Position numbers and translations under genes: made by a program. A stretch of DNA of 52,615 nucleotides from Escherichia phage vB_EcoP_Bp7. The notes beneath the pieces are model-generated. The model did no database searches, was not told the DNA's origin, and saw nothing but the letters and a program-made list of their open reading frames with translations. The stretch is taken from sequence record NC_079181.1; one strand, given 5' to 3'. This document shows, piece by piece, positions 12,814 through 51,950 of the stretch (positions are counted from its first letter, which is position 1; every line of letters starts with the position of its first letter).

Positions 12814-13488
12814 ATGTCTTATCATGATGATGACAAAGAGATTGCACTATCAACGTGTAAGCAATGGCTCAATGATAATGATGCCGTCTATCTTGCCAAG
12901 GAAGATGTTATCATTATGTGGGTCCATTTTAATCCAGAATCGAAGCGCGGTGAGTGGCAACGCTACAAGATGAAAGAGGCTTGTCGCATAATTAAAGCCA
13001 CACGCGCTGGCTTCTCTGCTATGAAGTATATTAAGCCAGAGATGCTTATGCTTGCTGCACAGGAAGAAGAACGTGCGTATAAGCAAGCTGTTAAATCTCG
13101 TTCAACTGTTCCTCCAGAGTTCTTTAATTTGGAGCGCGCTGGACACTTCAACAATTTAGAAATGTTGACACTGTGCCTGTTGCAAGAATTAGTTGGAAGA
13201 GGACAAAACATTGAAGCTGTTTGTCTTGGAGAACTCATGAAAGAGTTGTTCTCGGCAAAGGGCTTTGCTGTGCCAAACCGAACTTTACGCTGGAAATTGT
13301 TGCGAGCAGTCGCGCAAGAAGCTGGTGTAGTTGTTCGTGACAGAACAAACCGACTCACTGTAACTGGAGTTGGGCGTTTTGTAGCAATCCAGATTGAGGG
13401 TTATGACGAATCAATCATCACTGAACTCACTGTCGCTGAGACAAAGGATTTAGTAAATAAAACACTAGAACGATTCAATAGATATTGA
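12814..13488 (+). CDS. hypothetical protein (224 aa)
   Basis: ATG at 12814 in frame with the 12757 track ORF, directly after the upstream stop. Confidence 0.55.
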   Translation: MSYHDDDKEIALSTCKQWLNDNDAVYLAKEDVIIMWVHFNPESKRGEWQRYKMKEACRIIKATRAGFSAMKYIKPEMLMLAAQEEERAYKQAVKSRSTVPPEFFNLERAGHFNNLEMLTLCLLQELVGRGQNIEAVCLGELMKELFSAKGFAVPNRTLRWKLLRAVAQEAGVVVRDRTNRLTVTGVGRFVAIQIEGYDESIITELTVAETKDLVNKTLERFNRY

Positions 13489-13950: not shown

Positions 13951-14319
13951 GTTGCCGATGGCAGACTTGAGAGACTAAGCTAAATCGATCTGGCATGCAC
14001 TGGAAGTTTTCCGGTGCTGCCTTGAACCCATTCCAGAGTGAGTGGGCTTCAATTTGTACATAATCCAAACACCATTGCATGAGCCTTCGACGGGAGGCAA
14101 TGTTGGGAAATTTGTTGTGTACAAATTGAAGTAGTTTTCTGAGTCTTACGACGGGCCTAAACTGCCTGAAGTTATTGCGACTGTTTTATTCATTTAAAAT
14201 AAATGCAAATGATTCTGAAATGCGAGTTGCGGCTTAATTAAATTTAAGTCTTCTCCGTGGTCTTCCAATCCCACGTAACCAAATTTGGCGCATTGTGGCT
14301 CCGAGATGTGATTAATAAA

Positions 14320-14527
14320 TCGGAGCAATAATTAATTTGTATTCTGCGATGCAATGCAGGCTTAAGTCCCTCAGTGCGCGTGGGGATGTGACAGAGTACA
14401 AACTTAATTATTAATTTGTATTCTGGTGTTGTTCGCCAAGATTGGTGCACTCATGATTGGTAGTGTTGGAGAGCGCGGAGCCTAAAATATTATCTGGCAT
14501 CTCCTACCAGAGTACAAACTTAATTAT
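14320..14527. repeat. cluster of direct and inverted repeats in a non-coding island
   Basis: cagagtacaaacttaatta occurs twice (around 14390 and 14505); aattaatttgtattctg occurs twice; together they form an imperfect palindrome at 14393-14426. Confidence 0.55.
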
Positions 14528-14968
14528 GCAGTTGGATATTTCTAGAGGACGGACGAGCACACTGGAATGTCTTCAATTGGTTTAGTGTGAGAAGCTATGC
14601 CAATATGAAACGTAACTCCTTGGGGAAGTGCTCCTCTGGATTTCCCTCCACACAGGAATCTCAAGCCTGTGGCAGCGACTTCGAAGCTGCACTGCGTAAC
14701 CTAAATTCACCCTAAAGTGAGTTGCCCTGAGTATGGAAATAAACTGCTCATAACCGATGGTATCTACAAAGGTAGATTAAATCAGGTTGCCTGTTGGTAC
14801 TTGGGTTCAACACCTGCTTGCACTCGCAAAGTAGTGCCTCGTACCTGAGATGAAGTGAGTCGGGACCATCAATCCCACGTTATGTCAAAACGCAGTAGGC
14901 GGCTCACAGATTCTACAAGCCTCGCAGTTCGGGAAAACCTGCGTTATCAAAACCCCCTCTTATTCTTT

Positions 14969-15061
14969 GGACGAGTAGCTCAGAAGGTCTGCTCCAGAGC
15001 TTAGTCAGGTAGAGCAATCTGTTAGGCAGATGTGTCGTTGGTTCGAATCCAACCTCGTCCA
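14969..15061 (+). tRNA. atypical 93-nt tRNA-like gene (isotype unresolved, possibly Leu)
   Basis: Perfect 7-bp acceptor stem (GGACGAG / CTCGTCC) and canonical T-arm (GTTGG-TTCGAAT-CCAAC), but about 20 extra nt in the D-arm region; candidate anticodons UAG or CAG depending on the fold. Confidence 0.45.
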
Positions 15062-15093
15062 CCCACTTTAATAACCGCAATACTGGAGTCCTT

Positions 15094-15234
15094 ATGGATT
15101 TTGATGCACTTGATAATTTAGACTTCGGTGCTGCCGAAGAAGCAATTGAAGAACTTAAGAAGAAGCAGGACGAAGAAGCAATCGTTCCTGGTGAGGGCGA
15201 TAACGACTGCTCAAGTGGTGCGTGCGCCATCTAA
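15094..15234 (+). CDS. small acidic protein (46 aa)
   Basis: Hand-translated MDFDALDNLDFGAAEEAIEEL...; GGAG 6 nt upstream. Below the ORF track cutoff. Confidence 0.35.
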   Translation: MDFDALDNLDFGAAEEAIEELKKKQDEEAIVPGEGDNDCSSGACAI

Positions 15235-15242
15235 GGTGATTT

Positions 15243-15479
15243 ATGCAACAGCTTAAATCAATAGTTCTTGGCGTCCTGACTGCATTTGGTATTCTTATTG
15301 CAGTGTTCCTCAAAGGCAAAAGCTCAGGCAAAGCCGAGGAGCGTCAGGAAGCCACAGAGAAGCAACTAGATTCATTAAAAGAATCTATCGAGATTAAATC
15401 GCATGTTCAGAAAGAAGTGTCTAGCAGTTCTGATAGCAATGTCGATAGTGAGTTGCTCTCAAAGTGGGTTCGTAAGTGA
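15243..15479 (+). CDS. i-spanin-like membrane protein (78 aa)
   Basis: N-terminal TM segment IVLGVLTAFGILIAVFL followed by a charged helical region; AGGTGA SD. Confidence 0.45.
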   Translation: MQQLKSIVLGVLTAFGILIAVFLKGKSSGKAEERQEATEKQLDSLKESIEIKSHVQKEVSSSSDSNVDSELLSKWVRK

Positions 15480-15612
15480 TTATTGCTTAATTGCACAACC
15501 AATCTATTTGGATGTTGCAGAAGTGAAAATACTATCACGCGAAACCAAAACACAGATTTTAGTCCACAATGAAACGTGGGCACAAAAGTGTTCGAAACTT
15601 ACCCGACAGTGA
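15403..15612 (+). CDS. o-spanin-like lipoprotein (69 aa), overlapping the previous gene in another frame
   Basis: Lipoprotein signal MFRKKCLAVLIAMSIVSC with lipobox IVSC; overlapped two-frame layout as in Rz/Rz1 pairs. Confidence 0.45.
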   Translation: MFRKKCLAVLIAMSIVSCSQSGFVSDYCLIAQPIYLDVAEVKILSRETKTQILVHNETWAQKCSKLTRQ

Positions 15613-16555
15613 GTGAACAAGACGGACGTCTATAACTTCCCACATGGCCTAGCTAGTTGGTGGTGTAAAAGACTGACCAAGGTGACGACAGCCAAAGTCG
15701 AGGGAGTGCGCGACTTTAAATAACGAGACTCTAGCAACTTGTTGCGATGATGGTGTAAGCCCATGCGTTTGGAAGCAGGACTCCAACTCAAACAAACCTG
15801 CAAGTTGCTCTGGGCATAACAATTAAAATTGCTGCCTCGCATTGAACGCGAGAAAGTTCAGGTAGTCACTTCCTAGAACAGTGGCCGGGAACACACCTAG
15901 ACAAAAGTGCTTGAGAACGTTAGCTCTGTCTTGCCAGCATTAATGGCACGTTGGCCGCGTAAAGGCCACAGCGTCTGACCAACGTATCGGTCGCCAAATT
16001 CAATGGATTCGTAGAGTTAATTAAACCTGCACGATGGGATGGGGATGTAGCATCCGAGGCCGACTGTGTAATTGTGAACTTCGCGTTCACCGAATCCGCC
16101 AAATCCATGGGCTAGTGCAAATGTCAGTCACTAGAAGATGTGTTGCAAAACGTCTTCCATGATGTGCAAAGTGTCAGTCACGTGCCCGCCACTTTACCTC
16201 CAACAGTTATGCCTCTGTTCAAAAGGCTCAAGAGAGCGTCTGGCATACCGTAGCGATACGGCTTAGTTGCGCTGATTGTGTTGTGCAGAAAGAAAGTTCA
16301 GGCTTTCGTTTGGGTTACTCCTCATCCCGAAGTTAGCTGGATTCAAAATCCAGACTATGTTCCTATACACATGAAATATGCAAGTCGAGGGTTCTTAATG
16401 TTCAAACATGATGCGAGCATTAAGCGGGTTTATACTTTTCCCCGATGGTCCCCATAAACAAGGCTGATTCACTTGGGCGGTTCGAATCAAATTTAATAAG
16501 TGTTTTGTAACAGTTCACGTCAGGACACTTACTTAAATTTTAACTGGAGAGAAAC

Positions 16556-48885: not shown

Positions 48886-49929
48886 ATGGCTAAAGGTTAT
48901 TCTTTAGATGCGTTGGTTAGTGAGCACTACATGAAGTCTCGAGTTGCACTAGGGACAACAAACTTAGACACATATACCGGTATGGACAATATCGGTGTGT
49001 TCTACCAATACTCAAATGCCAACGCAACAAGTGAAAATGGGTATCCGGCAGGTGCACAAGCAGGTTCCCTAGAAGTTCTTCCCCACAACGCCAACAAAGA
49101 TGGTCATGTGCTGCAAAGGTACACAAACTTTTCAAATAAACGTATGTGGGTAAGAAGCCAGTCTGGTGGCGCAAGTGATGATAACTTCTACGAGTGGACT
49201 GAGTTCGTTAACATGAACAACATCTACAATGCTATCTACCCAATAGGCATTGTGTTGCAGTTTGACAACGCCACCAACCCGAACAATATGTTCACCGGTA
49301 CTGTGTGGGAACAAATCACAGATGGTCGTTCTGCCCGTGCTGCATTCTATGCGACAGCTGGCACTATTGATGGTCAGATTGGTTCTGTGGGTGGCAGCGA
49401 CTCTGTATCTATTGCTGTAGATAACTTGCCGAGCCACACACACAACATGCGAGCGCATACCCACTCCATCGGTGCTCATACCCACACAATGGCCCATACC
49501 CACTCCATAAACCATGACCACGGTGCGGTTAACACAAGCTCCACTGGTGCTCATACTCACAGTGTGAGTGGCTCTGCTGCCTCCAATGGTGCACACACAC
49601 ATGGTGTGGGTGAAAATGTTACAACCAATGCCGGTAGTGGTAGAACCGTAAACATGAGCACTGGTAAAATAAACCTCTATACTGGCTCTTCTGGTGCCCA
49701 CACTCACACAGTAAGCGGAACTGCTGCATCTGCTGGCGCACACTATCACTCCGTGGACTTGCCAAACTTCACTGGTACAAGTGGTGGCTCAAGTGCTGCA
49801 GACACTGGTGGAACGGCCTTGACTACAGGTGGCCCAAGCAACAACACTTCTGATGCTACGGGCGGTGGCAGCAACCTCAATGTGCGTAACTCCTCACACT
49901 ACTATGCCTTCTGGAAACGGACGGCTTAA
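48886..49929 (+). CDS. tail fibre distal/tip protein with His-rich HxH repeats (347 aa)
   Basis: Repeats of GAHTH / HTHS / HYHS around 49430-49760, resembling metal-coordinating HxH motifs of T4 gp37-type fibre tips. Confidence 0.55.
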   Translation: MAKGYSLDALVSEHYMKSRVALGTTNLDTYTGMDNIGVFYQYSNANATSENGYPAGAQAGSLEVLPHNANKDGHVLQRYTNFSNKRMWVRSQSGGASDDNFYEWTEFVNMNNIYNAIYPIGIVLQFDNATNPNNMFTGTVWEQITDGRSARAAFYATAGTIDGQIGSVGGSDSVSIAVDNLPSHTHNMRAHTHSIGAHTHTMAHTHSINHDHGAVNTSSTGAHTHSVSGSAASNGAHTHGVGENVTTNAGSGRTVNMSTGKINLYTGSSGAHTHTVSGTAASAGAHYHSVDLPNFTGTSGGSSAADTGGTALTTGGPSNNTSDATGGGSNLNVRNSSHYYAFWKRTA

Positions 49930-49936
49930 GGAAACA

Positions 49937-50278
49937 ATGGAACGATTATCCATTCAAATGTTTGTGGACCTGATGCACCAATATGGCGTATGGCATGGAT
50001 TATTGGCTGGTCTTACGGCTTTAATTCGTGGGGCATATGAGAGTGAAGGCTTAAGCAAGGCGCTGCTGGATGCGGCGCTGTGCAGCTTAATCGGCCTGTT
50101 TGCCTTTCATGTTGCTGGCACATTTGAGACTTTCACGACTAACGTCACTATGCAGTTAGTATTGGCTATCGTTATTGGTGTCATTGGTGCAAACCTCATT
50201 ATCACAACTGTCAGGGAAAGTTTCTCTGGCGCAATCAAACAACTTAACCCTTTGACGTGGTTCAAGAAGGTACGATGA
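49937..50278 (+). CDS. putative holin (113 aa, three predicted TM segments)
   Basis: ATG at 49937 with AAGGAAA upstream; three hydrophobic stretches; directly upstream of the endolysin. Confidence 0.5.
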   Translation: MERLSIQMFVDLMHQYGVWHGLLAGLTALIRGAYESEGLSKALLDAALCSLIGLFAFHVAGTFETFTTNVTMQLVLAIVIGVIGANLIITTVRESFSGAIKQLNPLTWFKKVR

Positions 50279-50295
50279 AATGATAAGGAACTCGA

Positions 50296-50850
50296 ATGCT
50301 ATCATTCAAAGTCCTTGCAGTTCTGGCAGCTTTAGTTCACATCAACGCCCCAGCTTCGGTTGGGGCAGTGAATTCTGCTATTACAGATTTTGCAAGTCAT
50401 TCCTATTTAAATGGAAGTCTGAAACTATCTTCTTCACAACGCAAAGAGCTAGAATGCTATACTAAAGTTATTTGGTATGAAGCTCGCGGAGAAGACAAAC
50501 ATGGAAAGATTCTGGTAGCTAATGTCGTCCGTAATAGAACCAAGTTCGGGAAGCCATTCGCTAACACCGTTTGTGATGTTGTCTATCAACGCAATCAATT
50601 TGCATGGACACGAGAAGCAAAGAAGAAGAATGCTCAATGGAAGCATGTAGCAAAGATTAATTATGCCACGGAACAACAACAAGTTCTGGACACCATTAAT
50701 GTTGCAATCTCTTTTGTATTATTTAATCAACCCTCTGTCACCAAAGCAACCCACTTTTGTACAGCATCGGAGAAGTGCAACTTCAAGAATGTCAAAGGTT
50801 TGGGACGTTACGGTGGCCACAAATTCTATGAGTATCTAGGAAATCTGTAA
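50296..50850 (+). CDS. endolysin, SleB-like cell wall hydrolase with N-terminal signal/SAR-like segment
   Basis: Hydrolase_2/SleB signature [22 protein letters not shown] ... VVYQRNQF; N-terminal hydrophobic [19 protein letters not shown]. Confidence 0.7.
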
Positions 50851-51950
50851 TGGCTTACACTACCTTTTCACAAACCAAGAATAACCAACTACTAGAGCCA
50901 ATGTTCTTTGGTCAGAACGTTAACGTTGCTCGATATGACCAACAGAAGTATAGCATCTTCGAGAAGTTAATCGAAAAGCAGTTATCTTTCTTTTGGCGAC
51001 CTGAAGAGGTTGATGTTAGTCAAGACCGAATTGACTATGCTGGTCTTCCTGAATGCGAGAAGCACATCTTCACCAGCAATTTACGATACCAAATCCTGCT
51101 TGATTCCATTCAGGGACGTGGACCAACCACAGTTTTGCTACCAATTGTGAGCATTCCTGAGCTGGAAACCTGGATTGAAACTTGGTCATTCTCAGAGACA
51201 ATTCACTCCCGTTCTTACACGCATATTATTCGTAATATTGTCACAGACCCAAGTGTAATTTTCGACGAAATTGTGGAGAATGAGCACATTAAAATGCGTG
51301 CAATTGGCATCTCCCAATATTATGACGAGCTTCAACATCTAACTTCCATGTGGCATCTGCATGAAGATGAAGTAGACCTTCGTGAGCTTAAGAAGAAGCT
51401 GTATTTATGCCTCATGTCCATTAATGCACTAGAAGCAATCCGCTTTTATGTCAGTTTTGCTTGCTCATTTGCCTTCGCTGAACGCAAGTTGATGGAAGGG
51501 AATGCCAAGATTATTCGCTTAATTGCTCGTGATGAAGCACTCCATTTGACCGGAACTCAACACATGCTGAACCTTCTTGCAAGCGGTGTTGATGACCCAG
51601 AAATGGCAGAAATTGCTAAAGAATGCCGTCAAGAATGCCAACTAATGTTCGAAAATGTAGCCCAACAAGAGAAAGATTGGGCTGATTATTTGTTCAAAGA
51701 TGGCTCAATGATTGGCCTAAACAAGCAAATTCTGTGCGGATATGTGGAATATATCACGAATATTCGTATGCAAGCAGTTGGATTAGATGCTCCATTCAAA
51801 GGTGCTACTAACCCGATTCCTTGGATTAACGCATGGCTGAATTCGGATGCTGTACAGGTTGCTCCACAAGAAACGGAAATTAGTTCGTACCTTGTCGGGC
51901 AGATTGATTCCGAAGTGGACACCAATGCTCTGGGCGGATTTGAGCTGTAA
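50850..51950 (+). CDS. nrdB: class Ia ribonucleotide reductase beta subunit, host-like
   Basis: Near-identical over most of its length to remembered E. coli NrdB ([11 protein letters not shown]..., [40 protein letters not shown]-terminal [14 protein letters not shown]). Confidence 0.92.

Follow-up and report, generated by a model that had tools for sequence, protein, structure and literature searches.

A probable two-component spanin encoded by overlapping genes 34 kb from the holin and endolysin genes of a Carltongylesvirus coliphage

Two overlapping reading frames of Escherichia phage vB_EcoP_Bp7 (sequence record NC_079181.1; the whole stretch of 52,615 nt that was analyzed is called the window here) very probably encode a two-component spanin; in phages that infect Gram-negative hosts, spanins make up the third functional class among the lysis proteins. 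The first codes for a 78-aa inner-membrane subunit (i-spanin) and the second, shifted by one nucleotide, for a 69-aa lipoprotein precursor of the outer-membrane subunit (o-spanin; Table 1). We favor this reading because of the homology of both products, a published catalogue of spanins, the annotation of relatives, and the gene context of homologues. The assignment of function rests on homology, architecture, and gene context, and it is from these that we infer topology, lipidation, complex formation, disulfides, time of expression, and the role in lysis. The initial annotation, made from the letters of the sequence, had recognized a layout like that of Rz/Rz1, in which a 78-aa protein with an N-terminal transmembrane anchor and a charged helix is overlapped in another frame by a 69-aa lipoprotein with the lipobox IVSC. 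Both descriptions hold, and the spanin-like layout is corroborated by matches to two spanin profiles, an entry in SpaninDB, RefSeq labels, and homologues that lie in lysis cassettes. The pair is already known, being catalogued and annotated in close relatives, and is scientifically nothing new.

Table 1. Positions in the window of the spanin pair, its signals, and the two other lysis genes
Feature	Coordinates	Strand	Basis
Shine-Dalgarno sequence AAGGTG	15233..15238	+	4 nt 5′ of the i-spanin ATG; read from the sequence
i-spanin gene, 78 aa	15243..15479	+	ATG start, ORF listing; phrog_1026 match; identity to GJ1 gp31
i-spanin transmembrane segment, residues 6-23, SIVLGVLTAFGILIAVFL	15258..15311	+	Uncharged run and hydropathy
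o-spanin gene, 69-aa precursor, 52-residue mature lipoprotein (predicted)	15403..15612	+	ATG start, ORF listing; phrog_1275 match
o-spanin signal peptide and lipobox, MFRKKCLAVLIAMSIVSC	15403..15456	+	Pattern search; lipobox Cys invariant in 50 homologues
Dual-coding overlap, 77 nt	15403..15479	+	i-spanin residues 54-78 in frame 0; o-spanin residues 1-26 in frame +1
Holin, 113 aa from ATG 49937	49937..50278	+	phrog_126 holin/anti-holin, E 6.8e-18; Pfam Phage_holin_3_1, 33.3 bits (cut-off 23.8)
Endolysin, 184 aa, hydrophobic N-terminus	50296..50850	+	phrog_938; Pfam Hydrolase_2, 58.8 bits

The spanin region is 91%-96% identical to that of Escherichia phages vB_EcoM_Bp10, JL1, phiEcoM-GJ1, ST32, flopper, and others, and on sequence identity we assign the window to Carltongylesvirus (Chaseviridae), as a phiEcoM-GJ1-like coliphage. 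The i-spanin is 100% identical to gp31 of phiEcoM-GJ1 (GJ1 hereafter), and the o-spanin is 98.6% identical to the corresponding GJ1 reading frame. In SpaninDB (Kongari et al. 2018, PMC6139136), the GJ1 pair carries the class "ovl"; its i-spanin has coordinates 14724-14961 and 78 aa, its o-spanin 14884-15094 and 69 aa, and the overlap measures 77 nt. The periplasmic domains have 55 and 52 residues, respectively. GJ1 gp31 with its unannotated overlapping o-spanin, and gp37/gp38 of phage Mangalitsa, are orthologues of the pair described here. GJ1 agrees with the window in the sizes of both products (78 and 69 aa), in having the second gene overlap the first by 77 nt in the +1 frame, and in the slot between a tRNA-like element and thyX; the sole difference lies at residue 65 in the tail of the o-spanin, which is K here and Q in GJ1. 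RefSeq uses the label "Rz-like spanin" for GJ1, for both Mangalitsa genes (NC_048799), and for PM1, 4HA13, and Faunus, and HK639 also carries a spanin label.

More distant homologues of both subunits are found in other Chaseviridae (PM1, 4HA13, and Faunus) and in phage HK639 (gp70/gp71), at 33%-43% identity for the o-spanin and 23%-40% for the i-spanin. All of these pairs share with the pair here three cysteines, an o-spanin core of the form PI...HN..W...C, and the C-terminal VDxEL motif of the i-spanin. Kongari et al. (2018) classified the GJ1 i-spanin as an overlapped singleton, grouped the GJ1 o-spanin with that of PM1 alone, and placed the HK639 o-spanin in the BcepNazgul o-spanin family (PMC6139136); the homology to the 4HA13, Faunus, and HK639 pairs widens this grouping of the GJ1 spanins. 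Scans of both proteins against Pfam returned no spanin or lysis family, even at E-values up to 1, and no NCBIfam model matched either protein. Neither subunit matched a PDB sequence in profile searches, and a Foldseek search with the o-spanin model gave no PDB match.

A related genome deserves mention for its label. The record PP952070.1 ("Staphylococcus phage Pel53," L015 in our set) is labeled a phage of Staphylococcus hyicus, yet its genome is Carltongylesvirus-like (Chaseviridae) and has the same Gram-negative-type spanin pair, the i-spanin gene carrying a 12-nt in-frame deletion. The Staphylococcus host label looks doubtful.

The i-spanin gene is preceded by a Shine-Dalgarno sequence that overlaps the TAA stop codon of a 46-aa ORF. 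Its product has a single N-terminal transmembrane domain without a signal-peptidase site, one of the marks by which two-component spanins are recognized (criteria of Summer 2007 and Kongari 2018); the best 19-residue Kyte-Doolittle window covers residues 7-25 (mean, 2.35), and the segment is flanked by one K/R on the N side and four on the C side. The tail that follows the helix comprises 53 residues, with 10 K/R, 11 D/E, and no Cys. Helix and coiled-coil content were judged from the published figures for the 100% identical GJ1 protein, in which 35 of the 55 periplasmic residues are helical (64%) and one coiled coil spans residues 26-58 (SpaninDB supplement, PMC6139136). The protein matches the "Rz-like spanin" profile phrog_1026 (E = 3.6e-20) over positions 1-78 of 85. 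Residues G25, S27, E47, V55, V59, V67, D68, E70, L71, and R77 are invariant in the i-spanins of the Chaseviridae genera and HK639. The conserved C-terminal motif reads SSDSxVDxELxxKWxR; its VDxEL...R part and a juxtamembrane KG+SSGK motif are common to the i-spanins here and in PM1, 4HA13, Faunus, and the lambdoid phage HK639.

The pair had initially been held to be tentative on account of the short i-spanin. The protein is indeed short, because of a seven-residue deletion relative to the sister genera: Carltongylesvirus i-spanins have no counterpart of one heptad that is present in the middle of the tail in PM1, 4HA13, Faunus, and HK639, whose i-spanins are 6-13 residues longer overall. The doubt drawn from this does not stand, since i-spanins of 69 aa (phiHSIC) and 77 aa (phi1M2-2) are also catalogued, as are periplasmic domains of just 45-48 residues (PMC6139136). 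At 78 aa, the protein is at the low end of the known size range, yet inside it.

The o-spanin precursor starts with MFRKK, continues with a hydrophobic core, and reaches the lipobox IVSC at Cys18, which is predicted to carry the lipid and to begin the mature protein. Ser19 stands at the +2 position, so there is no Asp inner-membrane retention signal. Of the window's 399 ORFs with 40 aa or more, no other matches the lipoprotein-signal pattern. The match to the "Rz-like spanin" profile phrog_1275 (E = 9.8e-18) covers positions 1-67 of 81. When 1.84 billion cluster representatives were scanned exhaustively with HMMER, 70 proved to be relatives of the o-spanin, nearly all 52-118 aa long; a word-indexed protein search had recovered just two near-identical fragments, so that the exhaustive scan was needed to reveal the family. 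In an alignment of 50 homologues, all 50 of which match phrog_1275, no substitution occurs at C18, C28, or P33, and conservation is 90% or more at I34, N56, and C63; the three cysteines are maintained throughout the homologous clusters (~70 clusters, 50 aligned). An AlphaFold2 model built from the 50-sequence alignment has a pLDDT of 87, with helices at residues 26-30, 38-43, and 46-67.

Spanin pairs are expected to have at least one periplasmic cysteine, and here the two that follow the lipobox, C28 and C63, are both in the o-spanin. Having no Cys in the i-spanin and two in the o-spanin, as T4 does, is the most frequent combination in the catalogue of 526 spanins (PMC6139136). In several relatives (L012, MLP1 [L020], TH23/TH28/TH33, and PYps3T), a 1-nt deletion near 15594 ends the o-spanin just past C63, with matches covering residues 1-66; judged from these sequences, the KLTRQ tail therefore appears dispensable.

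In the standard model, an inner-membrane subunit binds an outer-membrane lipoprotein by way of the C-terminal regions of both, the peptidoglycan mesh restrains the complex, and the complex fuses the two membranes once holin and endolysin have removed the wall (PMC6139136). Applied to the present pair, the N-terminal helix of the 78-aa protein would hold it in the inner membrane, with a short helical tail reaching into the periplasm. After export of the 69-aa precursor, Cys18 would receive its lipid and signal peptidase II would remove the signal peptide; with Ser rather than Asp at +2, the lipoprotein would then be delivered by the Lol system to the outer membrane, on its inner leaflet. The SSDSxVDxELxxKWxR motif of the i-spanin may be what binds the small helical domain of the o-spanin, and C28 and C63, whose placement follows the T4-type pattern, could form the disulfide links that spanins need. 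The complex would bridge the envelope through the peptidoglycan mesh and stay inert until the lambda-S-type holin and the secreted endolysin destroy the peptidoglycan; the freed spanins would then collapse and fuse the inner and outer membranes, completing lysis.

The dimensions of the pair bear on this model. Together, the two periplasmic parts total ~105 residues, which would reach at most ~14-15 nm by our own estimate from general helix and extended-chain dimensions. Commonly quoted widths of the E. coli periplasm exceed this span. The pair could thus be a near-minimal spanin (~53 + 51 periplasmic residues, with a folded helical o-spanin and a single short i-spanin helix), maybe too short for the intact periplasm, and might work unlike lambda Rz/Rz1, engaging only after local collapse of the envelope or playing a second, early role there; we regard such a departure from the lambda mode of action as unlikely. 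The short span also counts against the spanin reading as such, together with the lack of gene-neighborhood support in this genome, the lack of Pfam similarity to lambda Rz/Rz1, and the weak ribosome-binding site of the o-spanin gene.

The spanin pair lies 34 kb upstream of the holin and endolysin genes. The initial annotation had put these two at 49.9-50.9 kb, far from the pair, and the family matches agree. In the ORF listing, the holin frame opens at GTG 49829, inside the tail-fiber gene, which ends at 49929; the family match begins at residue 36, and ATG 49937 is likely the true start, to which the figure of 49.9 kb corresponds, rather than to the GTG. The endolysin is named "SAR endolysin" in GenBank MN045229, and the ORF that follows it (50850-51950) encodes the beta (small) subunit of ribonucleotide reductase. 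We found no alternative spanin beside the endolysin and no second ORF with a lipoprotein signal in the window.

Linkage to the other lysis genes is usual for spanins and is not obligatory. The order of tail fiber, holin, endolysin, and ribonucleotide reductase beta subunit is kept in relatives, and the spanin pair lies upstream of thyX and the primase-helicase gene in four genera (Carltongylesvirus, Suwonvirus, Sabourvirus, and Faunusvirus), so that the separation of the pair from the lysis cassette is a trait of the virus family. In HK639, by contrast, the homologous pair directly follows holin, holin, and endolysin as the last part of a single cassette. Two IMG/VR contigs (L013 and L014) likewise carry a homologous pair, with a +1 overlap, directly after the endolysin. 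The spanin genes PseT.3/PseT.2 of phage T4 are the accepted precedent for spanins unlinked to holin and endolysin. The T4 pair resembles the present one also in having no Cys in the i-spanin and two conserved Cys in an o-spanin that is predicted to be structured; it differs in that its proteins (117 and 83 aa) belong to other sequence families and its genes are classed as "separated."

Within the genome, the pair is part of an early/middle block upstream of the genes for ThyX, primase-helicase, and DNA polymerase. Phage promoter motifs of the GJ1 type (ATTAGTTGGA) occur at 13188 and 13520, and no copy was found between 13531 and the spanin genes, which are therefore probably read through from the upstream early/middle unit. 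Promoter-like sites of the sigma-70 type were scarcer around the pair than in shuffled sequence, and the scan, which also covered terminators, gave no useful result. Early synthesis does not conflict with the spanin model, in which spanins do nothing before the wall has been degraded.

The same position could be read in another way, namely that the pair is an early module that modifies the envelope and blocks secondary infection or DNA entry (compare T4 Imm/Sp and T5 Llp) and has no part in lysis. Its place in the early/middle block, 34 kb from holin and endolysin, fits such superinfection exclusion, and an Imm-like "immunity to superinfection" gene is found ~0.5 kb upstream of the pair in Mangalitsa; a search of the published literature found no wet-lab test of this spanin family. 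Against this, homologues of both proteins end the holin-endolysin cassettes of HK639, L013, and L014, both proteins match spanin PHROGs and no other family of known function, and the phage would be left with no other spanin. The T4 spanins show that linkage to other lysis genes is not required. We consider an exclusion module very improbable beside a spanin.

The lambda Rz/Rz1 pair has the same general design as the spanin described here: a type II inner-membrane protein with a helical or coiled-coil periplasmic domain, an outer-membrane lipoprotein encoded in the +1 frame, and periplasmic cysteines. There is no detectable sequence homology between the two, and they differ in many details. Rz1 is fully embedded in Rz, whereas the genes here overlap partially; Rz is a protein of 153 aa that has two Cys and two coiled coils; the i-spanin here has 78 aa, a single predicted coiled coil, and no Cys. 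Mature Rz1 is proline-rich and unstructured, whereas the mature o-spanin has a single proline in 52 residues and a confident helical model. The lambda genes are also inside the lysis cassette, unlike the pair here. The pair would function like Rz/Rz1, yet it is no sequence relative of it.

The likeness to lambda extends to the charges flanking the transmembrane segment, and these bear on a further question. A naive positive-inside rule applied to the four K/R on the C flank and the one on the N flank would place the tail of the 78-aa protein in the cytoplasm (N-out/C-in), where it could not reach the lipoprotein, and the two genes would then be unrelated neighbors. However, lambda Rz, which is N-in/C-out by experiment (cited in PMC6139136), has identical flank counts of one and four, and the positive-inside argument was dropped for this reason. 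The genes also stay paired in at least five phage lineages and in three gene architectures. An inverted topology is accordingly extremely improbable, and a spanin with a periplasmic tail remains the preferred reading.

We consider both ORFs to be real genes because of the end-to-end profile matches, the conservation in distant relatives, and the pattern of variation within the genus. The 77-nt overlap codes at once for the conserved C-terminal motif of the i-spanin and for the signal, lipobox, and first mature residues of the o-spanin. Across 13 Carltongylesvirus-like genomes, only one of its 77 nt is variable, compared with 47 of 160 nt in the part that codes for the i-spanin only and 28 of 133 nt in the part that codes for the o-spanin only. 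The flanks would predict ~20 variable sites in the overlap (P = 4e-9, binomial); without the two most aberrant genomes there are none, against 11.8 expected (P = 3e-6), both P-values being indicative only since the 13 genomes are related by descent. This depletion of variation is the classical signature of dual coding, and both frames are under constraint. In the o-spanin-only region, the variable sites fall at codon positions 3, 1, and 2 of the o-spanin frame in the numbers 10, 7, and 1.

Many GenBank records treat the locus as if only the 78-aa ORF were a gene and the 69-aa ORF a chance frame. In the primary records of relatives, the i-spanin appears as "endolysin," "L-alanyl-D-glutamate peptidase," or "hypothetical protein," and the o-spanin is absent or truncated; the Mangalitsa genome announcement is silent on lysis genes. 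The annotation of the first ORF alone, or of a truncated second ORF, in several records and the bare GAG that serves the 69-aa ORF as a ribosome-binding site are in favor of a chance frame, a reading that is almost certainly wrong and is effectively refuted by the conservation data: the 69-aa product is better conserved within the genus than the 78-aa product (94%-100% vs. 83%-100% identity), its homologues form 70 clusters with the lipobox Cys, C28, and P33 invariant, its variable sites outside the overlap are mostly at codon positions 3 and 1, it stands alone in Faunus and 4HA13, and it has a confident AlphaFold2 fold.

The two spanin genes are adjacent on the same strand, and this pairing is retained in PM1, HK639, 4HA13, Faunus, L013, and L014. 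The layout within the pair varies. The same +1 overlap is found in HK639, PM1, L013, and L014; its length is 77 nt in L013, as in Carltongylesvirus, and rises to 86 nt in HK639 and to as much as 140 nt in PM1. The i-spanin and o-spanin genes of 4HA13 and Faunus do not overlap in this way and meet at an ATGA junction, the o-spanin being read in the other frame. Families of spanins with mixed architectures have already been described by Kongari et al. (PMC6139136), and the variation seen here agrees with their account. In Faunus, the +1 frame of the 3′ end of the i-spanin gene reads MYRKKLLTVLIQLSI, which resembles the Carltongylesvirus signal peptide MFRKKCLAVLIAMSI and has no lipobox Cys. This reading illustrates how the overlapped signal peptide and the conserved C-terminus of the i-spanin share sequence.

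The surroundings of the pair were described in the initial annotation as a noncoding island with a tRNA-like gene beside the pair, and ORF-poor stretches do lie on both sides. The tRNA-like element (14969-15062, + strand) is followed, after ~30 nt, by the small ORF that stands just before the pair. By eye, its acceptor stem (GGACGAG/CTCGTCC) and T arm are intact, and ~21 extra nt stand before the D arm. The Rfam tRNA model scores 27 bits on it (gathering score, 29) at 14998-15053, with a shortened anticodon loop; ARAGORN found no tRNA in the whole window, and Rfam at gathering thresholds gave no match in the window. At the same spot, GJ1 has a 95-nt "tRNA-Arg, may contain an intron," and Pel53 has a normal 71-nt tRNA-Arg. 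The element may be a decayed or interrupted tRNA.

Between this element and the pair lies the acidic 46-aa ORF (15094-15234, + strand; MDFDALDNLDFGAAEEAIEELKKKQDEEAIVPGEGDNDCSSGACAI) whose stop overlaps the i-spanin Shine-Dalgarno sequence. It has no family match. Many relatives carry an annotated CDS of 141 nt here, and a small gene in Faunus is similarly placed, overlapping the start of the i-spanin gene.

Upstream of the pair, the 1.1-kb stretch 13951-15093 is ORF-poor. It contains direct repeats (CAGAGTACAAACTTAATTAT at 14392 and 14508; AAT(A/T)ATTAATTTGTATTCTG at 14327 and 14406) and a 17-nt inverted repeat at 14047/14115. The equivalent stretch in relatives holds variable small genes (the Imm-like gene in Mangalitsa, gp30 in GJ1), which suggests that this is a variable region. 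Directly downstream of the pair, the 943 nt from 15613 to 16555 have no ORF of 70 aa or more. Conservation of this stretch is 85%-99% across Carltongylesvirus; part of it recurs at ~78% in Faunus and 4HA13, and genome records nearly always leave it without annotation. Its predicted RNA folding is marginally better than that of shuffled sequences on the + strand (z = -1.77), compared with z = -0.02 on the - strand.

The practical value of these results lies in correct annotation, as many deposited genomes omit the o-spanin or misname the i-spanin. A complete set of lysis genes is useful for phages of this group, which are being characterized against pathogenic E. coli. Wider use is limited to a compact, cysteine-simple model spanin or to an example of architectural change within one family. 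In that family, abutting and overlapped layouts occur among homologous pairs, and these may offer a natural series on the gain or loss of overlap between spanin genes.
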